A DNA stretch of 64,000 bases from Dehalococcoidia bacterium (lineage in GTDB: Bacteria > Chloroflexota > Dehalococcoidia > Bin125), in the NCBI GenBank assembly GCA_965208665.1, contig CBDBPH010000001.1, positions 131,045 to 195,044 on the forward strand. Reading direction: 5' to 3'. The notes below the pieces were generated by a model. That model was not told the DNA's origin. It worked only from the letters and a program-made list of their open reading frames with translations, and did not search any database. Made by a program: the position numbers and the translations under genes. Below, piece by piece: positions 2,525 to 39,110 of this stretch (positions are counted from its first letter, which is position 1; every line of letters begins with the position of its first letter).

Positions 2525-4183
2525 CTACATCGTCGGCGATGACTCGGTGCTCCAGCCGGAAATCATCCCATCGACGTAGAGGACGCGGAGGGCGGTGAGG
2601 AGGCCGGGGAGGAGTTGGGCTCGCTGCGTCAATTCGACTCCTTCGAGGAGGTCGTTGAGGAGGTCTCGGACCGGGCGTTGGCCGTCGATTCGGGTGGCGA
2701 GCGCGGCGATGAGCACCGAGATTGGGGCTCCCTGGGGGCGGGTCGGGGAGGAGATGACGGCTCCCCACTCGAACTGTCCGTCGCCGATGACGGGCTTGCG
2801 GGCCAGGGTGACGCCCGAGGCGAGCGTGGGGACGGCGTCGAGCATCGGGCTGCGATCGGGCCAGGCGGAATCGATCAGTTTGGCCATGGCGGCGTCGCGC
2901 TCGGCGCGTTCTATTTCGACGGCGGCGACGCCTTCGACGAAGTCCGGCGGCGCTTCGCCTCGCTCGAGGACGACGCGCTCGTAGCCCTGGGGCGGTTGTC
3001 CGGCGACGGCGGCGATGAAGGCTTCGCGGGGTGAGACGTCGTTCGAGGTCTGCGTGATGCGGCGGGCTTCCCAAAAGTAGGAGTCGGAGGTGCGGTTGGA
3101 GGCGTAGAAGAGGGCGGCCATCTCTCGGAACTGGTGGTACTGCTGCATGTAGAGCTGGGTGTAGACCTCGGCGGCGGGCTCGCGCATGTCGGGATCTCTG
3201 AGGGCCGAGGTGACGTAGGCCGAGGCGAGGACGGCCGAGGACAGCGCCAGATGGACGCCGGAGGAGAAGAGCGGATCGATAAAGCAGGCGGCGTCGCCGA
3301 CAAGGATGTAGCCGTCGCCGACGAGGTGTTGTGAGGTGTATGACCAGTCGCGGATGACACGCGGCTGGTCGATCATCTGGGCCGGCTTGAGCATCGCGGC
3401 CGTGCGTCCCGTCATCGCGAGCTGGCGGCGATAGAACTCGTCGGTCGGCGCTTCGCTGAGATGCGAGCCGCCCCAGGCTGCATCGACCACGATTCCGACC
3501 GACATGATGTCGTCGGGCAGGGGGATCGCCCAGGACCATCCGTGTTCGTAGGCCTCGATGAAGATGTTGCCGGCGTCGGGCTCGGGCAGACGGTCTGCGC
3601 CGCGGAAGTAGGTGTAGACGGCCAGGTTGCGAAAGAACTCGTCGTTGACTCGCAGGTCGAGTCGGCGAGAGAGGAAGCCGTTTTGGCCGCTGGCGTCGAC
3701 GATCCAGTCGGCCCCGTGGGTCCGCGTCTCGCCGTCCGGCGATTCGACCGCCACTGACTTGCGGTCGCCCGCATCGAGGCTGACGTCGATGACGCGCGAG
3801 CCTTCGTGGACGGAAACTCCGTTGCGTTCGGCGTTGCGCAGGAGTATCTGGTCGAAGGTGGGGCGCCAGACCTGATAGGCGTGGGGATAGCTGGCGTTGG
3901 TTTCGGCGAAGTGCCAGGACCAGGGTTCCGGGTTTCGTCCCCAGACCATGGTCGCGCCGTATTTGGGGGTGAAGCCGGCGGCCTGGATCTCGTCGATGAC
4001 GCCGAGGGTCTCGAGGATGGGAATCGAAGCAGGGAGGAGGGACTCCCCGACGTGCTCTCTGGGGAAGACTTCGCGCTCGAAGATGGTGACGTCGAAGCCC
4101 TGGCGGGCGAGGAGGGTGGCGGCGGTGGAGCCGCCCGGTCCGCCTCCGATGACTATCACGGATGCGTTGGTTCCATTAGCCAT
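2525..4183 (-). CDS. FAD-dependent (flavin-dependent) halogenase family protein
   Basis: All three hallmark motifs seen in translation: GGGPGGSTAA (GxGxxG), EHGWSWAIPL (WxWxIP), FIDPLFSSG (FxxPxxSxG). ~550 aa like PrnA/RebH-type enzymes. Confidence 0.7.
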   Translation of the reverse strand: MANGTNASVIVIGGGPGGSTAATLLARQGFDVTIFEREVFPREHVGESLLPASIPILETLGVIDEIQAAGFTPKYGATMVWGRNPEPWSWHFAETNASYPHAYQVWRPTFDQILLRNAERNGVSVHEGSRVIDVSLDAGDRKSVAVESPDGETRTHGADWIVDASGQNGFLSRRLDLRVNDEFFRNLAVYTYFRGADRLPEPDAGNIFIEAYEHGWSWAIPLPDDIMSVGIVVDAAWGGSHLSEAPTDEFYRRQLAMTGRTAAMLKPAQMIDQPRVIRDWSYTSQHLVGDGYILVGDAACFIDPLFSSGVHLALSSAVLASAYVTSALRDPDMREPAAEVYTQLYMQQYHQFREMAALFYASNRTSDSYFWEARRITQTSNDVSPREAFIAAVAGQPPQGYERVVLERGEAPPDFVEGVAAVEIERAERDAAMAKLIDSAWPDRSPMLDAVPTLASGVTLARKPVIGDGQFEWGAVISSPTRPQGAPISVLIAALATRIDGQRPVRDLLNDLLEGVELTQRAQLLPGLLTALRVLYVDGMISGWSTESSPTM

Positions 4184-4265
4184 TGAGGTCAGCGTACTCG
4201 CGGATGCAGGCGTCCAATTCGGCGCCCATTGGCTTCGACGGGAGTCTCGCCCGCCGCCTGCGCAG

Positions 4266-4326
4266 GGGCCCTCACGCTCGGCTGCGTGGGGGCCCTCACC
4301 CTAGCCCTCTCCCAGAGGGAGAGGGG
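4266..4326. repeat. REP-like dispersed palindromic element, copy A (duplicated GGCCCTCAC leader + CCCTCTCCC-AGA-GGGAGAGGG hairpin)
   Basis: ggccctcacgctcggctgcgtgggggccctcaccctagccctctcccagagggagagggga; intergenic between halogenase stop and HTH gene stop; same family recurs at 23548, 26086, 34581, 38749, 39000. Confidence 0.8.
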
Positions 4327-4342
4327 AACAGAAGGAGAACCG

Positions 4343-5059
4343 CTAGGCGGCTTCGGCGCGGATTGGGGTTGGGATCTCGGGGTTTTGGCGGTCGGGATCG
4401 GTGAGTTGGTCGAGGAAGGCGAGGATTTGTTCGGTCGATTGGCCCTTGAGGTGGGGGAAGTGGTCGATGGCTTCGCTGATCAGGGCGTCCAGGTCGGTTG
4501 GATTGGGGAGGTGGACAGTTTCGGGGGCATTTTTTTCCTCCTGGGGCCGATCCGCGACGATCTCCTGCGCTGGACTGGAGATCGTGGGTTCGGGGTGGTC
4601 AGTTTTGTCAGTTTCGGAGGTGGATTCCGCTAGTTTCTGTGGTTCTGCCTGCGGTGCTTCATCAAAGAGGCCGGGTTGGTCGGGGCGCTGTTCGGCGCGG
4701 CGGTAGATGTCCTGGGCGGTGCGGCGGATCTCGCGGGCGAGCGCGTTGAGCTGGGTCTCTCGGCCCTCGCGGGCGCGCAGGTAGTCGACTGGCGTGAGCC
4801 GGTCGGTATTGGCGGCCACGTCGTCGTACTTGATGGCGAGCGAGAGGCGGAGGTGGAGCAGGTGCAGCGATTCGAGGAGGATGTCGTCCGCGGCGGCCGA
4901 GGCGATGCTGTTCCAGTGGGTCTCGACGAGCTGGAGGTCAGCGCGGACGGTGGCGTGCGAGACCTCGAGCTGCTTGGCGATCTGCCGCTGGGAGTTTCCG
5001 CGCTGGCGGAGGTAATGGACGCGGAGGCAGCGTTGTCGCCGCTTGGATGGGATGTGCAT
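4343..5059 (-). CDS. HTH domain protein (sigma-70 region-4-like / terminase-small-like HTH) with long acidic disordered C-terminal tail
   Basis: N-terminus LRQRGNSQRQIAKQLEVSHATVRADL is a helix-turn-helix; the rest is E/D/P/Q-rich low complexity. GGAAGG RBS 8 nt upstream of ATG at 5059. Confidence 0.45.
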   Translation of the reverse strand: MHIPSKRRQRCLRVHYLRQRGNSQRQIAKQLEVSHATVRADLQLVETHWNSIASAAADDILLESLHLLHLRLSLAIKYDDVAANTDRLTPVDYLRAREGRETQLNALAREIRRTAQDIYRRAEQRPDQPGLFDEAPQAEPQKLAESTSETDKTDHPEPTISSPAQEIVADRPQEEKNAPETVHLPNPTDLDALISEAIDHFPHLKGQSTEQILAFLDQLTDPDRQNPEIPTPIRAEAA

Positions 5060-5158
5060 GGTTGGGACCTTCCATGGTGCGTACAGATGTTCGGTGAGTG
5101 TAGCGAATGTGTGTTCCGTGTTGCTGTGTCGTGGTTGTCGGAGGGGGTTAACGCAGAA

Positions 5159-5190
5159 GACCCGCGCCGGAGCGCGGGTCTCTGTTGGGT
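5159..5190 (-). terminator. putative intrinsic terminator downstream of LLM oxidoreductase gene
   Basis: Perfect 9-bp GC stem GACCCGCGC-CGGA-GCGCGGGTC (5159-5180) flanked by U-rich tracts on both strands, 26 nt after the stop of the minus-strand gene. Confidence 0.4.
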
Positions 5191-5205
5191 GAACCGGGGG
5201 CGGGA

Positions 5206-6501
5206 TTAGTCGCCGGACATTGGGTCTCCGGTGAGGGTGTTGACCTCGAAGGCGCCCTTGAGGTCGAGTTCCTTACCCATCTCGCGGACGGCGGGGATGA
5301 CTTCCTCGCCGAACAGCTTGAGGGAGCGCATTGCGTCGTCGTGGTTCATGGCGCCGTCGCCGTCCCAGAAGAAGATGTTGCCGGGGCGCAGTTCTTCGAG
5401 GACGTGCCGGATCTTGGGGATCACGGTCTTCGGCGTACCGGTGATGATCGAGTACTTGTTGATCTGCTCCTCGTAGGTGCCGAAGGCGTCGGCGTCGACC
5501 TTGTCGGTCTCAGCATCCTTCTCCGCGAGGGCGGCCTTCTGCTCTTCCTGGCGTCCACGCGCGGCGGCAGCGAAGGTGCTGACGGTCGGCAGGAGCTGCG
5601 TGCGCGAAGTCAGACCAGGCAGGTTCTGCAGGTTGCTGCGAACGGTGCCCTGGTTGCCCTCGAGGAAGGGGTTGGCCGGACCGGAGATGTACTTGCGGCC
5701 GGCTTCCTCGGCCAGTTCCTCGGTCTCGTCGACGTGGACCTTGAAGAGGTAGCCGTGGTGCTCGGTCGAGGCTTCGTAGCCGTTCTCTTGCGCGACCTCG
5801 TCGTAGTAGTCGAACGACTTCTTGGTCGGCTCGATCTCGGTGGCGAGCATGACGTAGGGGTAGCGATGCTCGGCGCACCACTTGACGGTGTTGCGGCTCA
5901 TCACGCCGGGGATCCAGATCTGGGGGTGCGGCTCCTGGTAGGGGCGGGCCCAGGGGTTGACGTAGCGGTACTGGTAGTGCTCGCCTTCCCAGCGGAAGGG
6001 GCCGGGGGTGGACCAGGCCTTGACCACGAAGTCGTGGGCTTCCTGGAAGCGCTCCCAGTTGAAGGGGGCCTGGGAGTTGTGGGCGACCGACTCGCGGCCG
6101 GTGCCGCGGACCCAGCCGGTGACCAGGCGGCCACGGGAGATCATGTCGATCTCGGCCAGTTCCTCGGCGAGCCACAGGGGGTCTTCCCAAATGGGGAGGA
6201 CGTTGCCGAGCAGGACGATCTTGGCTCGCTTGGTGATGCGGGCGAGGATCGCGGCTTCGACGTTCATCACGCCGCCCATGCAGAAGGGCGTGGAGTGATG
6301 CTCGTTGAGCATCAGGCCGTCAAAGCCCATCTCCTCGGCGTAGACCTTCTCGTCGAGGTAGCGGTTGTAGAGTTCGGCGCCGATTCGGGGGTCGTAATCC
6401 CCGTTGGTCATCCCGAGGTCTTCGATCTCGCGGCCGGTCGCTCCGACCCAGCCCGATTCGAAGTCCTGGTAGGGACGTTCCGTGAAATAGCCAATGAACA
6501 T
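5206..6501 (-). CDS. LLM-class (luciferase-like) flavin-dependent oxidoreductase/monooxygenase
   Basis: 431 aa; ...FDGLMLNEHHSTPF... TIM-barrel bacterial-luciferase-family pattern; length and composition typical of F420/FMN-dependent LLM enzymes. Confidence 0.75.
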   Translation of the reverse strand: MFIGYFTERPYQDFESGWVGATGREIEDLGMTNGDYDPRIGAELYNRYLDEKVYAEEMGFDGLMLNEHHSTPFCMGGVMNVEAAILARITKRAKIVLLGNVLPIWEDPLWLAEELAEIDMISRGRLVTGWVRGTGRESVAHNSQAPFNWERFQEAHDFVVKAWSTPGPFRWEGEHYQYRYVNPWARPYQEPHPQIWIPGVMSRNTVKWCAEHRYPYVMLATEIEPTKKSFDYYDEVAQENGYEASTEHHGYLFKVHVDETEELAEEAGRKYISGPANPFLEGNQGTVRSNLQNLPGLTSRTQLLPTVSTFAAAARGRQEEQKAALAEKDAETDKVDADAFGTYEEQINKYSIITGTPKTVIPKIRHVLEELRPGNIFFWDGDGAMNHDDAMRSLKLFGEEVIPAVREMGKELDLKGAFEVNTLTGDPMSGD

Positions 6502-6610
6502 GGTTCCGGTTCCTGTTCCCTCCGGCTCAACGTGTGGATGCCCGAGCCGGTTGTACGTTCCTCAAGATGATACGTGACGGCGAATCGTCACGCCTCGATC
6601 GTCTGCTTCG

Positions 6611-7399
6611 CTACGAGCTGATGTGCGCGATCACGGCGTCGGCCGTGGCCTGGGCGTCTTCCAACTCGACGAGATGGCCGAGCCCGTCGAGCACCTGAAT
6701 CCTGCTGTTGGGCAGGCTGGAGTCGTAGACCTCGGCGACGCCCTGGGGAACGACGCGGTCGTTCTCGCCCCAGAGCAGGAGGGTCGGAGTCTCGAGTTCG
6801 GTGAGCAGATGCGGAAGCTGGCGATTGAACATCCAGGGCTTCCAGGTCAGACGCGCGGTCATCTCGCGCGAGAAGTCCCAGAGTTCCTTCAGTTCGGGGG
6901 CGGCCTCGTCGCCAAAGATGTCGGCGTAGGCCTCGTCGGAGGAGAAGCCGAGCTTCACGTACTCCTCGAACTCGTAGAAGATGACATCGGCGATCTCGCC
7001 CTCTTCGGGCTGGACGCCGGCCGCGCCGATCAGGGTGAGGCTGTCGAGGCCGTGTAGGTGCATGCAGGCGAGCTCGGCCGCAACCCAGCCGCCGAAGCCC
7101 ATGCCGACGAGGTTGGCGTCGGTGTCGATGCCCATCTTGTGGATGGCGCTGTGCAGCATGATCGCGATGTCGCGAGGGTGGCGAGCCCAAACCGGTCGCT
7201 CGGACTGTCCGTAGCCGGGCATGTCGATGGCGGTGACGGTGTGGTTTTGGGCGAGCAGGTCGTAGAACGGGATCCAACCGGGTCCTGTGGAGTGGTGCAG
7301 GACGACGATGTTGGGTCCGCTGCCGTCCTGAAGCGCGTTGACCTTGAGGCCGGAGACCTCAACGGCGATCTGTGTGTGCGTTTCTGCCTGTGTCGTCAT
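6611..7399 (-). CDS. alpha/beta hydrolase fold protein
   Basis: 262 aa; nucleophile elbow GMGFGGW (G-x-S/N-x-G-like), HHSTGPG oxyanion region, C-terminal catalytic His (GLGHLVELE). Confidence 0.7.
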   Translation of the reverse strand: MTTQAETHTQIAVEVSGLKVNALQDGSGPNIVVLHHSTGPGWIPFYDLLAQNHTVTAIDMPGYGQSERPVWARHPRDIAIMLHSAIHKMGIDTDANLVGMGFGGWVAAELACMHLHGLDSLTLIGAAGVQPEEGEIADVIFYEFEEYVKLGFSSDEAYADIFGDEAAPELKELWDFSREMTARLTWKPWMFNRQLPHLLTELETPTLLLWGENDRVVPQGVAEVYDSSLPNSRIQVLDGLGHLVELEDAQATADAVIAHISS

Positions 7400-7592
7400 A
7401 CACGTGCTCCTGACGGTGATTCCGGCGAGGTTGAGTCGGCTCGGAAGGGGTGTACGGGCGTTCCGTCGGTAGACCGAGCGGAAGAACTAGTTAGGCGCAG
7501 GCTAAGCGCCTATCGGCTCAGCGGCAACTGAGCGGGGAGACGGCGGAGCTTCAGGCGGTTGACGGTACGGCCAGTCGTAGCATTGGAGCATC

Positions 7593-10500
7593 ATGTTCGG
7601 ACTTTTTCGCCTACTCAGGCTCGCCGCCCTACGCGAATTGCGGGGCGGCTGGCTATTGATGTTCGGGGCGGCCTCGCTGCTGATCATCGCGGCCGGGCTG
7701 GTCGCGTTGCCGCTGGTCTTTCGAGCGGCCTCGGCGGACCTGGCACTTCGTGAGTTGATCGAGCAATCGCCGCGCGGGACCACCTTTGCGGACCACTCGC
7801 GCGCCTTCCGTCCGGCCAGCGCGGAGGACTTCGATTTCGTGGAGCGGGATGCGGCGGAGGCGCGCGAGCGGCATCTGGAACGGTTCCCGGGACTGGTCGG
7901 CGACACGCGGCGGATCATGGAGACTCCCGAGATCTTCGCCGGGTTCACGCGGCTCGACAACGGACTGAATGAGTCGATTCAGGCGTACCTGATGTCGTTC
8001 GAACAACTGCGGTCGAACGCGCGGCTGGTACGTGGCGATTGGGCCGGTTCGGCGGACGAGGTGGTGATCGGCTCGCGACTCGCCGAACAGCTCAACATCG
8101 ATGTCGGCAGCGTGGTCAGTTTCAGCGAGGCGATGCAGTTCGAGATCAGCGGGGTCATCGAGCCGGTTGTGGCGGATGTCACGCGGGTGCTGGCGTTCCA
8201 CTACACGGACGTCTGGTTCGAGTTGCAGTTCGATATCACGCTGGGCGGCGCCGAGGTGCCGTACTTCGGCATGTTCGCGGAGTCGGAGGCGCTGGAGCGA
8301 CTCGGGGCTCCGGTGACGCATCGGATGCGGACCGAATTGGATACGGACGCGATCAACTCCGACCAGGTTGAGGATGTGATCGAGTCTCTGGGCGCGTGGC
8401 AACAACAGCTGAGCCGACTGGAGGGTGGCTCGGCGGGCACGCTGTTGGTGGGGGCGCTGCAGTCCTTCGTACGCCAGGCGCAGTTTTCGGCCGGGCAGTC
8501 GCTGCTGGCCGGTCTGCAGATCGCTGCGGTGGCGATGTTCGGCGTCGCGCTGGTCGGCCGGGTGATGGCGCAGCGGACTCGCGTCGATCGCGAACGGCTG
8601 GCGGCTCGGGGGGCGAAGCCCTGGCAACAGGCGGGGGCGCAGGCGATGCTCGGCGGTGTCGCGGCGCTGCCGGCGGCGATTCTGGGCGCTCCATTGGCCG
8701 CGTTCGCGTTGAGTCACGCCGGACGGTTGGAGGCGGTGGCGCGTGTCTCGGGCGGTGAGCCGTTCGATACGCGGCTGACAGTGGAGGCCTGGGGCCTGGC
8801 GATTGCGGGCGCGGTGATCGCCTGGATCGCATTTGCCGCGCCGGCCTGGTTCGATGCTCGGCAGCGGACGAATGAGCGCGTGGCGCAGGGGCGGCCACAG
8901 CGGCAGTCCCTGGTGCAACGGGCCTGGCTTGATGTGGCGCTCTTGGCGCTGGCGACGGTGCTGTTTCTGCAGTTCGAGACCGAGGCGTCGGGCGGGGCGC
9001 TTGCGGCGTTTGAGTCGGGTGGGATCAATCCGGTGCTGATGTTGAGCCCGGGACTGCTGCTGCTGGGCGCGGCGTTGACGATCATGCGGCTGGCGCCTCG
9101 AGTCTGGGGCTTCGCGGCGGCGGTGCTCTCCAGATCACCGATTCCGTCGTGGCTGTATCTCGGAGTGCTCAACGTCGCTCGGAATCCGACCGGTCCGATG
9201 TTGCTGACGGCGCTGGTTGCATTCGTCACGGCGGTGGGACTGATCTCGGCGACGTATGCGTCGACGATTCGGACCGTCGAGCGGTCGCGGATCGAGTATG
9301 AGGTCGGCTCGGACCTTCGCGGCGTGTCGATCGGCGGCAACCTGTCGAACTCGACGGTGGGCCGCGTGACGGAACCACTGCAGAGCCGTCAAGGGATTAT
9401 GGCGGCAGCGGCGTATCGCGGGATCGGTGCGATCGGCGGGGACCGCGAGGGCAGCCGCGTCGTGTTGTTGGGGCTGCAGACGAGCCGGTTATCCGAGATC
9501 GTGTCACTGGATGAGGACTTGCTGGGTACGCCGCCGGACGAGTTGTTGGCGGCGATCGAACGGGAGCCGGGGCGCGCCGGTCAGGAGTTGCCGGACGGGG
9601 CAGAGGCGCTGACGGTGCGCGTGCGCAGCGATCCCGGGAACAGCAACCTTGAACTGGCGGCGCGGGTGCTCGACGCCCGTGGGCAGGTGCACATGCGGCC
9701 GTTTCGGACGAACACGGCGTCCATCGTGGACGGGGACTGGAACACGTTTCGCGCGCCGCTGGGCGGGCTTGAGCAACCGCTGCGGATCGCCGCGATCATT
9801 CTGCGGCCGCAGGCGCGGGTCGTGAGAGCGCCGACGGGCACGTTGTACATCGACGAGTTGAACGCGCAGGTGGGGGAGCAATCCGTCGCGGTGGATGCGT
9901 TTGACGAGGATGGGCCGTGGTTGCCCGCCTCGGGCGGTGCGGGCGAGGACCGGATTTCCTTCGAGGGCGGAGGGCTGCGCTACCACTGGTCGCAACTTGC
10001 GGCGAGCGATGAGCGCATCATCGTGCGCGAGTCGCCGAACCTGCCGGTCAATGCGGCGATGGATCGAACGTCGATGGAGACCGCCGATCTGAGTGTCGGC
10101 GACATTGTGCCGATCGGGGTCAGCAACGCGAATATCCCGGTGCGGATCCAGGCGGCCGTTGATTACTTTCCGACGCTCAATCCGGCGCAGGGTGGATTCC
10201 TGATCGTGGATCTGCTGGCGCTGCGGGGGGCGGCGCTGGTCGCGGCGGTTCAGGCGGTGCTGCCGATCACGGAGGTGTGGACAGCGACTGGGACCAACGC
10301 GGGGCGTCTCGTAGCGGGCGAGTTGCTGGACGATGTGTACCTGGCCAGCACGGTGCTGGACGCGGAGGCGAAGATTGCAGCGGCGGAGGAGGATCCGTTT
10401 CGCTCGGGCGGCGCGGCTGCGTTGTTCGTGGTTGGATTCATTGGCCTTCTGATCGTAGGTTCGGCGGCGTTGATTTTCACGCTCGCCGCTGCCGGCGGGG

Positions 10501-32574: not shown

Positions 32575-33699
32575 TCACGCAGTTGGGTCGAGTTGCGCAG
32601 ACCAGTCGATATCGGTTTCGAGGAATCGCCCGACTTCAGCGAACTCGGCTTCCAGTTGCGTTTGTGCGCTCTCTGACAATTCTTCGAAGCATGTGACCCT
32701 GACGGTCAGTCCGCGGGCACGGCGTTTGCGGTCCCAGGTTGCGACCAATCGGCCCTCGATCAAGACGCAGGGACGGAGCATCCCGCCGCCGGCGTTGACT
32801 CGCTTGAGGAGATGGTCGGGGACGTCGAGGTCTCGTTTGGCGTAGCCGACGATGTACGGATCGAATGGTCCCAACACTCGCAAGACGTCCTGTGGAGCGT
32901 CCAGCACATCGTTGAGCCGATCCAAGCCGTCCTGCGACATCCACATCGTCTGGCCATCGACGTCTACCTCGGTCAGAGCTTCCATCGCGGCTTGTAGACA
33001 TTGACGGGTGTCGGCAGCGGGCAGGCCGGACCACCAGCGGAAATCGGACTGGGTTGCCGGGCCGTAGGCGGCGAAGTAGCGGCGGGCGAGTTCGGCGCCG
33101 GGGTCCGGAGGTGGATCGGCCTGGGGCAGCCAGTCGTCGATCAGGACGTGGGTCGTGTCGCCGTTGCGTTCGGGACCGAAGCAGGTGACGCCCAGCAACG
33201 ACGTGGTACGGAGCAGGTGGGGTGTGGCCTGGCCGTCCGACGGAAGGCCCGCCGAACGGAAGGCGTCGCCAATCTCGGCTCGGGTCATTGGTCCCCTGGC
33301 TGCGAGTTCCTTGCGCAGGAACTTGAGCACCTTGGCATGGTCGTCGTCGGAGATGCCTAGGTCGGCTCGGCGTTTGAGCGCCTTGGCGTCGATGGCTTCG
33401 CCGAGCAGGTCGAGCATCCAGCGGAGATCCTCGGATGGGACGAGATGGAGGGTGCCGCGCATGAGCCAGTTGCGGACGATCGAGCGGTCGACGAGGCGGG
33501 CGTGATCGACGTTGGCGGCGGTCAGGCCCGTCGAGCGGGTGCCGACGCCGAGTTGCTCGCCGAGGCGGTCCTGGGCCTGGATGGCGGCGGCGGATCGGAC
33601 GGTGTCGGGCACGGCTGTGCCGCGCCGGGCGCTCAACAGCTGGGCGTGGAGGCGAAGGCGATGGGCCTCGCGGCGGGTGAGGGCGATTTCGGCGGGCAT
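32575..33699 (-). CDS. AlkZ/YcaQ-like winged-helix DNA glycosylase (DUF1006; interstrand-crosslink repair family)
   Basis: 374 aa; N-terminal AAIQAQD (Q-hydrophobic-Q catalytic motif as in AlkZ), HLVPSEDLRW, C-terminal winged-helix region. Confidence 0.6.
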   Translation of the reverse strand: MPAEIALTRREAHRLRLHAQLLSARRGTAVPDTVRSAAAIQAQDRLGEQLGVGTRSTGLTAANVDHARLVDRSIVRNWLMRGTLHLVPSEDLRWMLDLLGEAIDAKALKRRADLGISDDDHAKVLKFLRKELAARGPMTRAEIGDAFRSAGLPSDGQATPHLLRTTSLLGVTCFGPERNGDTTHVLIDDWLPQADPPPDPGAELARRYFAAYGPATQSDFRWWSGLPAADTRQCLQAAMEALTEVDVDGQTMWMSQDGLDRLNDVLDAPQDVLRVLGPFDPYIVGYAKRDLDVPDHLLKRVNAGGGMLRPCVLIEGRLVATWDRKRRARGLTVRVTCFEELSESAQTQLEAEFAEVGRFLETDIDWSAQLDPTA

Positions 33700-33713
33700 G
33701 AGTATCAGCCTAG

Positions 33714-34550
33714 GTGGGCGGAATTGGTAGGCTCACGCTCGTGACCAGTCCACCCAGTCCACCCAGTCCACGCGGCGATGGATGGCAGCCGGACCAGTAC
33801 GCCCGGTTCAAGGCGGAGCGGGAGCAGCCGTTCTACGACCTGCTGGACCTGGTAGAGCCGGTGCTCGCGGGGCGCGTGGTCGATCTGGGTTGCGGTACCG
33901 GCGCGCTGACTGTGGCGTTGCACACGAAGACGTTGGCGGACGAGACGGTCGGGCTGGACCGGTCGGAGGCGATGCTGGAGCAGAGCGCTGAGCACGCGGG
34001 TGGCGGTGTGCGGTTTGTGCGCGGCGACATTGCCGAGTTCAGCGGGTTGGATGGCGGCGGGCTGGATGTGGTGTTCGCCAACGCGTCGATCCAGTGGGTG
34101 CCGGACCATGCGTCGCTGTTTCCTCGGCTGGCCGCGACGCTGAGGCCGGGCGGGCAACTGGCGGTGCAGATGCCGGCCAACGAGGATCATCCGTCGCACG
34201 CGGTGGCTCGCGCGGTGGCGCAGGAGTCGCCGCACGCGGAGGCGCTGGGCGGGTTCGTGTATCGGCACTCGATCGAGTCGGCGGAGTGGTACGCGGAGCA
34301 GCTGGCGCGGCTCGGATTCGTCGAGCAGCACGTGCGCGTGCAGGTCTATCTGCACCGGTTGCCGGGGCCGGAGGACGTGATCGAGTGGGTCAAGGGGTCG
34401 CTGCTGACGGGCTATCGGAATCGGATGTCGGCGGAGGACTACGAGGCGTTCCTGGCGGACTATCGGGAGCGCCTGCTGTCGGTGTTGCCCGACGAGCGTC
34501 CGTTCCTCTACCCGTTCAAGCGGCTCCTGCTGTGGGGGCGGATGGGCTAG
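33714..34550 (+). CDS. tam: trans-aconitate 2-methyltransferase-like SAM methyltransferase
   Basis: WQPDQYARFKAEREQPFYDLL (Tam N-terminal signature), VVDLGCGTGALT motif I. True start may be the GTG at 33741 because the AlkZ-like gene starts at 33699 on the other strand. Confidence 0.65.
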   Translation: MGGIGRLTLVTSPPSPPSPRGDGWQPDQYARFKAEREQPFYDLLDLVEPVLAGRVVDLGCGTGALTVALHTKTLADETVGLDRSEAMLEQSAEHAGGGVRFVRGDIAEFSGLDGGGLDVVFANASIQWVPDHASLFPRLAATLRPGGQLAVQMPANEDHPSHAVARAVAQESPHAEALGGFVYRHSIESAEWYAEQLARLGFVEQHVRVQVYLHRLPGPEDVIEWVKGSLLTGYRNRMSAEDYEAFLADYRERLLSVLPDERPFLYPFKRLLLWGRMG

Positions 34551-34564
34551 GCGGTGGTCAGGGT

Positions 34565-34639
34565 GGTTGGGTTTGGTCGAGGCCCTCACCCTAGCCCTCT
34601 CCCTCGGGGAGAGGGGACTGGAGATGGTTGGGTTTGGTC
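34565..34639. repeat. REP-like palindromic element, copy D, flanked by a 14-bp direct repeat GGTTGGGTTTGGTC
   Basis: ggttgggtttggtc-gaggccctcaccctagccctctccctcggggagaggggactggagat-ggttgggtttggtc; immediately after the tam stop; left border of a lower-GC accessory segment. Confidence 0.8.
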
Positions 34640-34777
34640 AGGTTCGGTAGGCGTGTTATGTCGAGTGGGATTGCGAATTCCCTGTGTTTTGCTGGGTTTC
34701 GTGATCGGTGGTAGGTCGTCAGGTGAGAATTTTTCCTGGGCGCTGGGAAACGAAAAAACGGGTTCGGGTGCTCAGAC

Positions 34778-34807
34778 TTGTCCAGATCTGTCCAGATTCG
34801 TCCAGAT
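34778..34807. repeat. 10-nt x3 tandem repeat (TTGTCCAGAT/CTGTCCAGAT/TCGTCCAGAT) in a ~400-bp lower-GC non-coding stretch
   Basis: Read directly from the sequence; lies 3' of the MTase gene. Confidence 0.7.
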
Positions 34808-35014: not shown

Positions 35015-36658
35015 CTACGCGTCGAGGGATTGCTGGACGCCTTGCTGGCGCCGCCGGCGTGGGGCTTTGCGGAAGGTCTGGGGGGCGGCGAAGCGGGGGT
35101 AGTCGGGCTGGTCGCCGTTGAGGAGCTGCTCGATGGTGAGGATCTGGACCTTGGGGTACCTCCGGGTCTCGAGTCCCGATGATTCGTAGAAGCCGGCGGC
35201 GATCGCTTCCTGGCGCATCGGCTTGGTCGGTTCTTCAAGGGTGATGAAGATGCCGATGGCGGCGTCCTCGCGCTCCATGTCGCCCTTGAGCGTGGCGACC
35301 ATGCCGCGGTTGACGTGACCGCTCTTGACCTGGACGATGATGCGCCTGGCCTTGCCGGAGTTGTCGTCGAAGAAGTTGATGTAGCCGTCAATGCCGGAGT
35401 CGGCGCCCTTCTTGCCGGTGGCGGGCCGGGCGTCGACGAGGCCGAGCGCCCAGTACTCGAACTGGTAGCGGCCGTCATGCTCGGACTCGGTGGCGAGCGC
35501 GCGGGCACTGGCGACATCCTCTGGGAGCCCGACGATCTGGTAGGCGGACAGTTCGGTGCCGAACGTGTCGTGCAGGCGGTGCTTCATCAATGAGATTGAC
35601 ACGTGAGTGAGATCAATGCCGATCCAGCGCCGCTTGAGCCGCTCGGCCACGGCGACGGCGGTGCCGCAGCCGCAGAAGGGATCGAGGACGATGTCGCCCT
35701 CGTTGCTGCTGGCATCGATGATGCGTTCGAGCAGAGCTTCAGGCTTCTGTGTCGGGTAGCCGAGGCGTTCCTTATGGGCACCAGAAAGCGACGGAATGTC
35801 GCTCCAGATGTCTTGAACTGGCACACCCTTCGAATCTTCCAAGTACAGCTTCTGTCGCGGGTATCCGGTCCTGGAATAGTAGAGCCGGCCTTCGTCATGA
35901 AGCCGCTGCATGGTTTCCTTGCTGTATCTCCATGCGCGAGTGTGACCATTCCAGTCGAAGACGGGATTGCCCTTCTCCGCGCCACCCGGACCAGTCAGAG
36001 GTGTGGTAGTAAAGCGCTTACCGGTCTCCTCATCGATGTGCCTGTAGGTCGATTTGACGTAGCTTTCATCCAGCGGGACAAAACCTTGGTTCCATATGAC
36101 CGAGTCACCCTTGTTATAGAGCAACAGAATGTCGTGGACTCGTCCAAAGTGCCTGGAGCCTTGCCCGACATCGTTATGAGCGCCGTAACGCCGCCAAGTG
36201 ACTTCGTTGGTGAACATGTCGTGTCCGAAGACCGCATCCATCACCAGCTTCAGATAGTGGCTCGCGGTCGGGTCGCAGTGGAGGTAGATGCTTCCGGTTG
36301 GTTTGAGGACGCGGTGGAGTTCGGCGAGGCGCTGGGCCATCATCGTGAGGTAGGCCATCATGTCGTTCTGGCCGAGGAACTCGCGCATCGCCTGGAGCAG
36401 CTTGCCCAGCTTGTCGGGGCCCTCGGTGACAACCTCCTGGTAGGCGCGCTCGGAGTCGAGGGTCCAGTGCCAGGTGTCGTCGAAGGCGGTGATCTGTGCC
36501 GCGGAGTCCTCGCCGGATCGCTCCTTGAAGAGGACGTTGTAGGTGGCGTTGGAGTTGAAGGGCGGGTCGAGGTAGATGAGGTCGACGGACTCGGAAGGGA
36601 TGTGTTCGCGGAGGACGGAGAGGTTGTCGCCGAAGTAGAGCTGGTTGGTCCAGGTCAT
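35015..36658 (-). CDS. DNA methyltransferase (N6-adenine/N4-cytosine, DPPF-type) fused to a C-terminal Mrr-like PD-(D/E)xK nuclease domain
   Basis: SVDLIYLDPPFNSN (motif IV DPPF), C-terminal SAM-binding motif VLDPFCGCGT. Then GADSGIDGYINFF...RRIIVQVKSG (Mrr_cat-type D...QxK). GGAGG RBS upstream of ATG at 36658. Confidence 0.75.
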   Translation of the reverse strand: MTWTNQLYFGDNLSVLREHIPSESVDLIYLDPPFNSNATYNVLFKERSGEDSAAQITAFDDTWHWTLDSERAYQEVVTEGPDKLGKLLQAMREFLGQNDMMAYLTMMAQRLAELHRVLKPTGSIYLHCDPTASHYLKLVMDAVFGHDMFTNEVTWRRYGAHNDVGQGSRHFGRVHDILLLYNKGDSVIWNQGFVPLDESYVKSTYRHIDEETGKRFTTTPLTGPGGAEKGNPVFDWNGHTRAWRYSKETMQRLHDEGRLYYSRTGYPRQKLYLEDSKGVPVQDIWSDIPSLSGAHKERLGYPTQKPEALLERIIDASSNEGDIVLDPFCGCGTAVAVAERLKRRWIGIDLTHVSISLMKHRLHDTFGTELSAYQIVGLPEDVASARALATESEHDGRYQFEYWALGLVDARPATGKKGADSGIDGYINFFDDNSGKARRIIVQVKSGHVNRGMVATLKGDMEREDAAIGIFITLEEPTKPMRQEAIAAGFYESSGLETRRYPKVQILTIEQLLNGDQPDYPRFAAPQTFRKAPRRRRQQGVQQSLDA

Positions 36659-36807
36659 TTGGGGCCTCCGGTGGTCAGGGTAAGGGCAGTCGGGCGTTAG
36701 CAGAGCCGGTCCCGGTTCAAGCGGTGAGTAGCACGTTCCGGGAGCCAAGCATCGACCATCCGTTCGTAGATAGTAGACTAGCGACAGAGACGAGGAGGCT
36801 GACAACG

Positions 36808-37665
36808 ATGCCTGGTGAACTCATTGCGGGTGCTGCCGCAGGCTTGACGAACCCGGCAACTGCGTTGATCGAAAGGGTGTCCGATGCAGTCGGCGGCATC
36901 GCGAGGCCTGCTCAGATTCGTCGTGTCGCTAGGGCTGAGGCCGATGCGAAGGTGATCATGGCCGAAGCGGACATCAAGATCACCGAGATCCAGCAGCGCG
37001 CAGCGCGCCGCTTCATTGAGGAGGAAACGAAGAACCAGATCAACATAGAGAACATTACCCATCAGGCGATACCTCACCTCAATGAAAATGCAGAGCCCGA
37101 GAAGATCGAAGACGACTTTCTCAGGAACTTCTTCGATAAGTCGCGGCTGGTGTCGGACGAACAGATGCAGGAGATCTGGGCCCGCATACTCGCCGGCGAG
37201 GCGAACAACCCGGGAACCTTCGCAAGGAAGACGATCAACATCGTGGCCGATATGGACAAGTCCGACGCCGACCGATTCGCTATCCTCCTCAGTTTTTCCT
37301 GGGTCGTCGGCGGCAACCCGGTGGCCATTGTCTACAACGACGACAGCTATTTCGATGAGAGGGGGATCGATCTAGAGATGTTGGCTGATCAGGAGTCGCT
37401 TGGTCTGATCTCGACGAATTCTCTTCCGTACGGGTTCTACCTCAGCGGGGTATCACTCCGTGCTGCTTACTTCGATAAGTCTGCTCAAATCACTCTGTCA
37501 AACAAAGACAAGAACTTTCTGAGCACGGGCAATGTGTTTCTTACTCCGGCTGGCCGACAGCTCGCATCAATGTGTCGCGTGAGACCGATCGAGGGTTTCT
37601 TTGACTTCATGTGCAGAAGGTGGGAAGAGGACTCGAGCGTAGAGTCGGTCAGGACACTCAACTGA
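36808..37665 (+). CDS. DUF2806-like protein (N-terminal coiled coil), noticeably lower GC than surroundings
   Basis: SDEQMQEIWARILAGEANNPGTFARKTINIVADMDKSDADRF resembles the conserved DUF2806 core; GAGGAGG RBS before ATG at 36808. Confidence 0.45.
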   Translation: MPGELIAGAAAGLTNPATALIERVSDAVGGIARPAQIRRVARAEADAKVIMAEADIKITEIQQRAARRFIEEETKNQINIENITHQAIPHLNENAEPEKIEDDFLRNFFDKSRLVSDEQMQEIWARILAGEANNPGTFARKTINIVADMDKSDADRFAILLSFSWVVGGNPVAIVYNDDSYFDERGIDLEMLADQESLGLISTNSLPYGFYLSGVSLRAAYFDKSAQITLSNKDKNFLSTGNVFLTPAGRQLASMCRVRPIEGFFDFMCRRWEEDSSVESVRTLN

Positions 37666-37836: not shown

Positions 37837-38076
37837 GTGAAGACGACCGATCACTTCTGGAAGGCGCGCTTTCTGATGCCCGACCGCGGGCGCATCCAAC
37901 TGCATTGGATTCAGCGAGTAGTGGATCGGCCGCTCCGACGTGAAGTGCAGTCGGATGGCCGAATCCGATGCTGGGGGCGTGTACCGGAACTGGGTGGACG
38001 GGCGCTCAGAGTGGTAATCTTGGCCGACGGCGAGACGGTCCACACTGCGTTCGTCGACGGAAGATTCAGGCCATGA
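37837..38076 (+). CDS. DUF4258-family toxin (type II TA)
   Basis: MKTTDHFWKARFLMPDRGRI... matches the T-DH-x-x-AR-x-x-x-RGI opening of DUF4258; 79 aa; stop overlaps the start of the downstream DUF2283 gene. Confidence 0.55.
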   Translation: MKTTDHFWKARFLMPDRGRIQLHWIQRVVDRPLRREVQSDGRIRCWGRVPELGGRALRVVILADGETVHTAFVDGRFRP

Positions 38077-38270
38077 AGCGGTTCTACTCCAAAGACACCG
38101 ACACGCTCATGTTCGTCTTTTCCGACGAGCGCGTTACTGATTATGTTGATCTGGACTTCCAAACGCTGCTCGAACTGGACTGCGACGGCAATCCCGTTGC
38201 CCTGACCATCGAGCACGCCCGCGAACGCAAGGTGCTGCCAGAGGTCGATTCTGAACGGATTCCCGCCTGA
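38073..38270 (+). CDS. DUF2283-family antitoxin
   Basis: MKRFYSKDTDTLMFVFSDERVTDYVDLDFQTLLELDCDGNPVALTIEHARE is the classic DUF2283 pattern; ATGA overlap with the toxin. Confidence 0.6.
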   Translation: MKRFYSKDTDTLMFVFSDERVTDYVDLDFQTLLELDCDGNPVALTIEHARERKVLPEVDSERIPA

Positions 38271-38720
38271 TTGCGGAGACGATCGATGTTGCGAGCGGTG
38301 GCGGAGCCGGCGGCGATTGAGCGCCTGGCGAGCCAGATCAAGGAGTCGCCGATGGATGAGGTGCGAATGCCGGCGCAAGTCGCCAATCCCGATGCGCCCG
38401 ACCGCTACTGGGAGGCGGATTTCCTGCTCGACAGCGGCGCGAGCGTTTCGGTCGTGCCGGTCGACGTCCTCGAGCGGCTCGGCGTTAGTCCGCGTCGCCT
38501 GGGCCGCTCCTATCTCGCCGATGAGTCGTCGATCGTGCGGCGCGTGGGACTGGCGACGTTTACCGTCGCGGGCGAGACGGAAGACGCGAGCGTCATGTTT
38601 GGCGAGGAGGGCACGGAACCGATCCTCGGCCTGACGGTGCTGCAATCGATGGGGTTTCTCGTTGATCCGCTGCGTGAGCGTCTGCTGCCTCGTTCGGCGC
38701 TCGCGGAGGCGTTGGATTAG
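38271..38720 (+). CDS. retropepsin-like (clan AA) aspartic protease
   Basis: FLLDSGASVSVV carries the D-S-G-A catalytic motif; ~145 aa single-domain bacterial retropepsin-like protein. Confidence 0.55.
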   Translation: MRRRSMLRAVAEPAAIERLASQIKESPMDEVRMPAQVANPDAPDRYWEADFLLDSGASVSVVPVDVLERLGVSPRRLGRSYLADESSIVRRVGLATFTVAGETEDASVMFGEEGTEPILGLTVLQSMGFLVDPLRERLLPRSALAEALD

Positions 38721-38744
38721 GGATCTTCCCGGGACTGGGGTGCT

Positions 38745-39110
38745 GTGGAGGCCCTCACCCCAGCCCTCTCCCTCGGGGAGAGGGGGTCAGAAGGGGCGGG
38801 ATTCCGTAGCGGGGTCGGGAATGAGGGTGAGAGGTGGGTACTGTGGGCGGGTGCCCCCCTCTGTCTCTACGAGACATCTCCCCCCGCTGGCGCGGGGGGA
38901 GAGAAGAAGGGGCGGGTCTCCGGGTTCGAGCGCGGTGGGAGAGGGGAAGGGGCTGGTCCCCGCTCGGGGGTGGGGAACGGGAGGATTCTGCCGTGGGAGG
39001 GGCCCTCACCCCCCGCCTTCGCGGGGGCAGGCTCTAACCCTCTCCCTCGGGGAGAGGGGATTCGCGAGCGGGTCGGGGAGCTGGGAGGGCTCGTGTATCC
39101 TGAGGCGGAT
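38745..39110. repeat. complex array: two full REP-like units (38749-38788, 39000-39062) plus degenerate ~40-45-nt tandem GGGG-rich sub-repeats and additional CCCCGC-N-GCGGGG hairpins
   Basis: Repeated gaaggggc(g/t)gg...cgggg...gggga blocks; the shadow ORF 38745..39116 translates to repetitive GERG/GEGAG peptides. Confidence 0.75.

Follow-up and report, generated by a model that had tools for sequence, protein, structure and literature searches.

The MmeI-type and Type IIG families of restriction-modification (R-M) enzymes display many specificities on a conserved framework. In Type IIG and Type IIL enzymes (Eco57I, BpuSI, and MmeI), a PD-ExK nuclease at the N-terminus is followed by a helical connector, then by a gamma-class methylase with an NPPY motif and, at the C-terminus, by a target-recognition domain (TRD); the MmeI-type and Type IIG enzymes are stand-alone chains, with one nuclease and one methylase site on one recognition module (PMC4081073). 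A different arrangement is found in BtgZI, a Type IIC/IIS enzyme (GCGATG 10/14) with demonstrated cleavage, in which an N-terminal alpha-class methylase is joined in a single chain to a C-terminal PD-QxK nuclease, with Gln in place of Glu (PMC4081073). In this work, we analyzed a gene harbored by a stretch of 64,000 nucleotides from a Dehalococcoidia bacterium (Chloroflexota; contig CBDBPH010000001.1, positions 131,045 to 195,044), hereafter referred to as the window, which codes for a methyltransferase fused to an Mrr-type nuclease domain. We interpret its product as a self-contained, single-chain combined R-M enzyme in the style of Type IIC/IIS, built on a beta-class methylase, and we assign to this interpretation a probability of about 0.55. 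An earlier note on the same DNA had proposed a single-chain R-M candidate, and this remains the best-supported reading; the methylase is fused to an intact Mrr-type domain, and no partner restriction endonuclease lies nearby.

Further systems are relevant for the comparison. The Type ISP enzymes, such as LlaGI and LlaBIII, begin with an Mrr-like PD-QxK nuclease, which is followed by a superfamily 2 (SF2) translocase and a gamma-class methylase, and they end in a TRD (PMC3874165). Type III systems (EcoP15I Mod, Mbo45V Mod, and H. pylori Mod) require, in addition to the Mod methylase, a separate Res subunit made up of an SF2 helicase and a nuclease. The Type IV enzymes E. coli Mrr and MspJI, lastly, have an N-terminal modification reader and no methylase, and cut modified DNA.

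Comparison with Known Systems

The window protein shares with BtgZI, compared here by its description, the single chain, the N-terminal methylase, and the C-terminal PD-QxK nuclease; it differs from it in that the methylase belongs to the beta class, with DPPF preceding FxGxG and a TRD located in the center, and in that cleavage is predicted. Unlike the Type ISP enzymes, it has no ATPase, and its nuclease is C-terminal and its methylase beta-class. It is the Type III Mod proteins that its methylase resembles most; in this case, however, the Mod-like chain itself carries the nuclease, no res gene is adjacent, and none was found within 8 kb at 82 loci. As for the resemblance to Type IIG/IIL enzymes suggested in the earlier note, it holds by analogy only; their nuclease, connector, NPPY methylase, and C-terminal TRD are all missing, and the definition of these types does not apply to a protein with a C-terminal nuclease and a beta-class methylase (PMC4081073). 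Hence, the window protein lacks the hallmarks of Type III systems, of Type IV Mrr, and of classical Type IIG/IIL enzymes; the one definition with which it agrees is the broad, architectural one of Type IIC, since both catalytic domains reside in one polypeptide and both motif sets are intact. In function, and by analogy, it would be closest to BtgZI and to the Type ISP and Type IIG/IIL enzymes; with these last two groups it would have the logic in common, but not the domain order, the methylase class, or the accessory domains.

The same note had regarded the union of a methylase with an Mrr-type domain as a paradox, on the grounds that such domains normally cut modified DNA. This part of it does not stand. 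Mrr and MspJI sense the modification through a domain of its own at the N-terminus (winged-helix or SRA), Mrr_cat being the PD-QxK cleavage module only (PMC12707154); because the sensing resides in a separate domain, and precedents exist in single-chain R-M enzymes that modification blocks, namely BtgZI (PMC4081073) and Type ISP enzymes such as LlaGI (PMC2790908, PMC3874165), a methylase and an Mrr-type nuclease are not contradictory. It is highly improbable that the protein is Type IV-like, i.e., that its C-terminal domain reads or cuts methylated DNA and that the enzyme acts on a foreign methylation pattern. It is only the family name that points in this direction, Mrr and MspJI using this catalytic domain; however, no reader-domain family was detected in a Pfam scan down to E 0.1, the N-terminus of the window protein being occupied by the methylase, LlaGI does not target methylated DNA in spite of having the same motifs (PMC2790908), and an enzyme that both methylates DNA and cuts methylated DNA would be suicidal.

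Gene and Domain Architecture

The longest open reading frame (ORF) at the locus (35015..36805, minus strand) starts from a TTG codon and comprises 596 residues. The N-termini of the homologues coincide with the sequence MT(T)WTNQLYFGDN at the ATG in position 36658; since the homologues share this N-terminus and a GGAGG sequence lies 6 nt upstream, this ATG was taken as the true start (Table 1). An identical protein is present in the public protein collection (P0001). The start at 36658 and the extent of the gene as first described are therefore correct, with the addition that the gene lies on the minus strand. The layout in two parts was also right, with a minor correction to the proposed extents (400 residues of methylase followed by a C-terminal domain of about 130): the methylase spans residues ~1–375 and the linker and nuclease ~376–520, after which a basic tail follows. 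The motifs that had been quoted (DPPF, FCGCG, DSGID, and QVK) were all found at the expected places when the sequence was checked, and the intactness of the Mrr-type PD-(D/E)xK domain was borne out by the Pfam matches and by the presence of all three Mrr motifs.

The N-terminal part matches the Pfam family N6_N4_Mtase (PF01555) over residues 25–352 (E 7e-45; 154 bits vs. a cut-off of 26.7). Its motifs are arranged in the permuted order of the beta class, DPPF coming before FCGCG with the variable region between them, and this half of the protein is similar in fold to solved beta-class methylases. The sequence matches retrieved for it from the PDB were M.BceJIV, CcrM, M.RsrI, M.MboIIA, and Type III Mod subunits. 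This half is thus to be classed with the beta-class N6/N4 amino-methyltransferases. The DPPF motif is compatible with either base (N6-adenine or N4-cytosine), and the nearest structures are mostly those of N6-adenine enzymes.

The C-terminal part is matched by Mrr_cat (PF04471; residues 415–487, E 2.5e-8, 34.5 bits vs. a cut-off of 21) and by NA-iREase1 (PF22722; residues 415–513, E 1e-9, 38.8 bits vs. a cut-off of 27). The Pfam matches of both halves are far beyond chance. The three Mrr motifs, as defined for Mrr and LlaGI and including the supplementary Asp located four residues upstream (PMC2790908), form a complete set: F-E (motif I), D-x-G-h-D (motif II), and Q-x-K (motif III). The order of the secondary structure elements (helix 398–407, strands 425–429 and 438–445, helix 451–463, and strand 468–473) is such that F400-E401 falls on the first helix, D424 opens a strand, and Q443-x-K445 lies on the strand that follows, in keeping with the layout defined for Mrr and LlaGI. 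A profile search of the PDB with the C-terminal domain did not retrieve any meaningful match (Vps33, E 0.08; ribosomal protein S3, E 1.1); the comparison of folds gave structural neighbors, among them N.BspD6I (a nicking enzyme) and NucS (a repair nuclease). In the basic tail, little or no variation is seen at T528, F529, A532, and R534 in the alignment of the homologues, and this tail may contact DNA.

Table 1. Coordinates of the fusion gene and of its parts in the window.
Feature	Positions	Strand	Basis
Methyltransferase-nuclease fusion coding sequence, complete (547 residues and stop)	35015..36658	minus	ORF list, homologue N-termini, Shine-Dalgarno sequence, Pfam
Shine-Dalgarno sequence GGAGG	36665..36669	minus	6 nt 5' of ATG 36658; direct sequence reading
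Methylase N-lobe, residues 1–145, with catalytic motif IV DPPF	36224..36658	minus	PF01555; at least 90% column identity in 120 homologues; GC content at third codon positions (GC3) 0.92
DPPF motif, residues 31–34	36557–36568	minus	sequence
Central variable region, presumed TRD, residues 146–295	35774..36223	minus	variability, nucleotide identity, GC3
Methylase C-lobe, residues 296–375, with PTQKP and S-adenosylmethionine-binding motif I VLDPFCGCGT	35534..35773	minus	
FCGCG motif, residues 328–332	35663–35677	minus	sequence
Conserved linker helices and Mrr-family PD-(D/E)xK nuclease domain, residues 376–520	35099..35533	minus	
Mrr motif I, F400-E401, first core helix	35456..35461	minus	motif definition (PMC2790908)
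Mrr motif II, D420-S-G-I-D424 (supplementary Asp, Gly, and catalytic Asp starting the beta strand)	35387..35401	minus	
Mrr motif III, Q443-V-K445, end of beta strand	35324..35332	minus	
Conserved basic C-terminal tail (PRFAAPQTFRKAPRRRRQQG...; TFRKAPRRRR), predicted disordered	35018..35098	minus	predicted local distance difference test (pLDDT) <50

Conservation of the Nuclease Active Site

Residues E401, D420, D424, Q443, and K445 were found in 120 out of 120 close homologues (at least 69% identity); in other words, the subfamily to which the window protein belongs shows no departure from the canonical E...D...QxK set. Moreover, in the alignment with 150 representatives of 50%-identity clusters, D420 and D424 were each present in 147 out of 151 aligned sequences (with two gaps) and K445 in 148 out of 151, corresponding to a conservation of ~98%. 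Among the Asp and Gln/Lys positions whose alignment the earlier note had singled out, D420, D424, and K445 are thus kept widely, and Q443 is invariant only among the close homologues. This pattern is that of purifying selection on the nuclease active site.

The main alternative explanation would be that of a solitary (orphan) methyltransferase, whose nuclease-fold domain is non-catalytic and works as a DNA-binding, clamp, oligomerization, or regulatory module; such a protein would only methylate, either for epigenetic marking or for protection of the DNA of a host or phage from other restriction systems. We consider this rather unlikely, given that the near-invariance of D420, D424, and K445 among representatives sharing no more than 50% identity would be difficult to account for if the domain neither catalyzed a reaction nor bound metal, and that the whole canonical set is kept in the close homologues. 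Several observations, most of which would suit an orphan methylase, nevertheless weigh against the interpretation as a combined R-M enzyme. The slightly better of the two Pfam matches of the C-terminal domain is NA-iREase1, a family named “NACHT-associated inactive restriction endonuclease 1”; the window protein, however, has the conserved catalytic D, D, Q, and K, and the partner is a methylase rather than a NACHT domain. In the wider family, the substitutions E to Q and Q to S are common: position 401 is Q in 97 out of 130 sequences and E in 32, and position 443 is S in 77 out of 150 and Q in the remaining 73, with all four combinations of the two positions observed among the wider representatives. 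These variants, which represent the main internal caveat, may reflect a weakened or altered chemistry in some lineages; they are no proof of inactivity, because Cfr10I, NgoMIV, and Bse634I are active with an SxK site and a relocated carboxylate (PMC2790908). The confidence of the predicted model is moderate (mean pLDDT 75–76, falling below 50 at residues 416–420). Furthermore, the public annotation of all the members reads plain methyltransferase, and the literature searches retrieved no paper characterizing the architecture and none showing nuclease or restriction activity of its members (REBASE, which was outside the scope of the searches, may already flag such ORFs). Lastly, the locus is syntenic with those of several species-level genomes (L002, L010, L012, and L016), with AlkZ-like, aminotransferase, and NuoB/NuoI neighbors in common, and a chromosomal position conserved within a clade would be compatible also with a solitary methylase that has become domesticated.

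Exchange of the Target-Recognition Domain

According to the alignment of the homologues, residues ~146–295 form the most variable segment of the protein. The pairwise identity of this presumed TRD is bimodal (30–50% or 70–100%), whereas that of the methylase core is at least 69% and that of the nuclease mostly at least 60%. In 216 pairs, a core identity above 88% is accompanied by a TRD identity below 35%, and there are pairs in which the core is ~95% and the nuclease 94% identical and the TRD only 32%. The same holds for copies residing in one genome: in five out of six two-copy genomes and in both tandem pairs (L064 and L073), the N-terminal core lobe is 86–100% and the nuclease 85–99% identical, the sixth genome (L056/L069) having lower values (79% and 71%, respectively), and in all of these genomes and tandem pairs the TRD identity is 20–55%.

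The five orthologous positions (the window, L002, L010, L012, and L016) hold at least four different TRDs. At the nucleotide level, the window gene and its syntenic allele at L002 are 80–94% identical in the 5' 430 nt and mostly 73–92% in the 3' part, vs. 38–56% in between. The GC3 of the window gene is 0.92 in the N-lobe, 0.65 in the TRD, 0.83 in the C-lobe, and 0.90 in the nuclease; this drop suggests that the TRD now present in the window gene was imported recently. Taken together, these comparisons show that the TRD is swapped like a cassette between paralogues and alleles. Such a pattern is the behavior of an R-M specificity module; it is typical of the diversification of defense specificity and would be unexpected for a housekeeping orphan methylase.

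The tandem paralogous fusion genes are located at positions 4315–9629 of L073 and 6363–9656 of L064, with identities of 0.90–0.99 for core and nuclease and of 0.20–0.26 for the TRD. At L073, a third, distant beta-class methylase lies upstream.

Family Size and Distribution

A word-indexed search returned at least 8000 matching protein clusters; the best 120 of these are at least 69% identical to the query, of which they cover at least 86%, and all show its three Pfam domains. By scanning one genome per species, at least 592 loci were found, the best 80 of which belong nearly all to metagenome-assembled genomes of Dehalococcoidia or other Chloroflexota, and the remaining few to Latescibacterota, Acidobacteria, Desulfobacterales, and Bacillota. 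Probing with the C-terminal 164 residues in a full HMMER scan retrieved 2867 cluster representatives at E ≤0.001 and 102 at E ≤1e-30. Out of 76 longer representatives of this nuclease subfamily, 61 carry PF01555, with the nuclease at the C-terminus, and the other 15 are mostly fragments or chimeric gene calls that keep the linker, one of them having a ParB_N domain. Therefore, this nuclease subfamily occurs essentially as a C-terminal addition to beta-class methylases.

These data bear on a broader claim, to which we give slightly less than even odds: the window protein would be the first recognized member of a very large class of one-protein R-M enzymes, formed by a Type III-Mod-like beta-class methylase and a C-terminal Mrr/FokI-style cleavage domain, having no ATPase, and gaining new specificities by swapping a central TRD of ~150 residues among nearly identical chains. 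This class would be “programmable” in the manner of MmeI, on another chassis, and would be abundant in Dehalococcoidia as well as a lysogenic defense gene of temperate actinophages.

Homologues occur also on mobile replicons. Full-length sequences with 41–50% identity and the motif residues kept were found in temperate Streptomyces likaviruses, in the Mycobacterium phages Amgine, Dori, and Mask, and in the Marinitoga phage MPV1; moreover, six plasmids carry a homologue (from rhizobia, Cellulosimicrobium, and a Rickettsiales endosymbiont). Together with its place between two hydantoinase genes at L086 and beside PIN, HigB, DUF2283, and Uma2 genes elsewhere, this shows a gene that is mobile or found in defense-like settings. 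Solitary protective methylases are common in phages, and from this point of view the occurrence in phages would suit an orphan methylase; in all three temperate phages inspected, however, the gene adjoins the integrase or a CI-like repressor gene, the region where prophage-expressed defense genes have been reported in mycobacteriophages (PMC7542560). The “single-subunit restriction system” of the mycobacteriophage Panchino was considered as a possible member of the family and dropped, as Panchino was not among the phage matches.

Genomic Context and Autonomy of the Gene

In the window, the gene is surrounded by genes for a DUF2806 protein, a small-molecule-type S-adenosylmethionine (SAM) methyltransferase, an AlkZ-like glycosylase, and a pair formed by DUF2283 and an aspartyl protease. 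Neither the Pfam identities of these neighbors nor PADLOC, in which none of them matched a restriction component, point to a separate restriction enzyme next to the fusion gene, in agreement with what had been remarked at first. PADLOC recognizes only the methylase part of the fusion (as MTase_II or MTase_III) and finds no known multi-gene defense system at the locus. The ORFs lying within 8 kb on each side of the 82 loci were then clustered: no conserved partner (restriction endonuclease, Res helicase, or specificity subunit) was found, each neighbor family being present at no more than 11 out of 82 loci and none at a fixed position. In the annotated contexts of the related loci, which consist of housekeeping genes, toxin-antitoxin-like genes (PIN, HigB, DUF2283, PaREP1, and Uma2), and other methylases, a Res helicase or a restriction endonuclease is never present, nor is there a Res helicase in the window. 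The unit is a single stand-alone gene.

On a related Dehalococcoidia chromosome (L086), the fusion gene lies between the Hydantoinase_A and Hydantoinase_B genes, an arrangement that suggests a small cassette inserted into an operon. The insertion of a single gene in an operon, the frequent recombination around the TRD, the single active site per chain, and the presence of N.BspD6I and NucS among the structural neighbors could also be accounted for if the nuclease were active in a non-classical way, as a methylation-state-directed nickase or in end processing (e.g., to tell the strands of hemimethylated sites apart, or to aid, by a nick, the spread of the gene itself or the recombination of its TRD). 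This seems improbable to us. Nothing in the data is specific to repair or homing, no conserved repair partners occur in the 8-kb flanks of the 82 loci, and monomeric single-site domains, such as those of FokI and of Type IIC enzymes, also cut both strands via transient dimerization (PMC4081073).

At L086 (positions 3621–10299), a PIG-L gene and a 79-residue GIY-YIG ORF accompany the fusion gene between the two hydantoinase genes; a second PF01555 methylase, without a nuclease, is located 4 kb away.

Neighboring Genes and Repeats in the Window

The gene for the AlkZ-like DNA glycosylase (E 1e-68) adjoins that for a class I SAM methyltransferase (window positions 32575–34550), and the pair is found in synteny beside the fusion gene also at L002. 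The gene of the DUF2806/TIGR03899 family (36724–37665, plus strand, E 6e-31) is divergent from the methylase gene, has a GC content of 0.55 vs. 0.65 for the window, and gave no match with PADLOC. It was evaluated as a possible part of the system and rejected, being absent from all 81 related loci; it was probably acquired separately. Further on, a DUF2283 gene (37968–38270, plus strand) is followed at once by a gene for a retropepsin-like aspartyl protease (38271–38720, plus strand; Asp_protease_2, E 1.5e-8). DUF2283 also occurs near the fusion gene at L002 and L087, in these cases together with PIN or HigB toxin-antitoxin-like genes.

A palindromic element, CCCTCTCCCTCGGGGAGAGGG, lying inside a repeat of ~48 nt, is present in five copies in the 64 kb vs. 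zero expected; its 21-nt core lies at positions 4305, 23563, 34595, 38764, and 39038, and the longer copies span 34569–34616 and 38738–38785. Two repeat copies, 90% identical, flank the 4.1 kb that hold the methylase-nuclease, DUF2806, DUF2283, and aspartyl protease genes. We evaluated whether the 48-nt direct repeats (34569 and 38738) could be attachment (att) sites of an inserted island, and rejected this, since the core is dispersed five times across the window; the element looks like a family of hairpins similar to repetitive extragenic palindromes or to terminators. No tRNA was found in the window and no Rfam family between 33 and 40 kb. Lastly, three tandem GTCCAGAT units (34775–34806) occur in a non-coding stretch of ~460 bp (GC content 0.59) just 3' of the methylase gene.

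Proposed Mode of Action

If the product is a combined R-M enzyme, the following scenario can be depicted. The methylase/TRD module would bind a short specific sequence; in the DNA of the host, the target base (N6-adenine or N4-cytosine) would be methylated, and cutting thereby blocked. On unmodified incoming DNA, the tethered nuclease domain, presumably non-specific and with one active site per chain, would pair with that of a second molecule and cut near the site, in the way of FokI, BtgZI, and the MmeI-type and Type IIC enzymes (PMC4081073). The specificity would be diversified by swapping the TRD cassette, with the methylase core and the nuclease kept nearly identical.

Significance

The window gene is one of thousands, and it is the family-level picture, with a beta-class chassis, a C-terminal Mrr nuclease, and TRD cassettes, that merits experiment. 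If the nuclease were inactive, the protein would be an ordinary methylase with a decorative domain. If it is active, the family would represent a third chassis for combined (Type IIC) R-M enzymes, besides the gamma-class one and the single alpha-class example, with thousands of natural members; moreover, since these genes are annotated as plain methyltransferases, genome surveys would wrongly count them among the “orphan” methylases. The TRD cassettes, once paired with methylome motifs, could yield a recognition code and new enzymes that cleave at a distance. An active nuclease would also mean that a main restriction barrier in Dehalococcoidia, as well as a prophage-borne defense gene in actinophages, has been identified.

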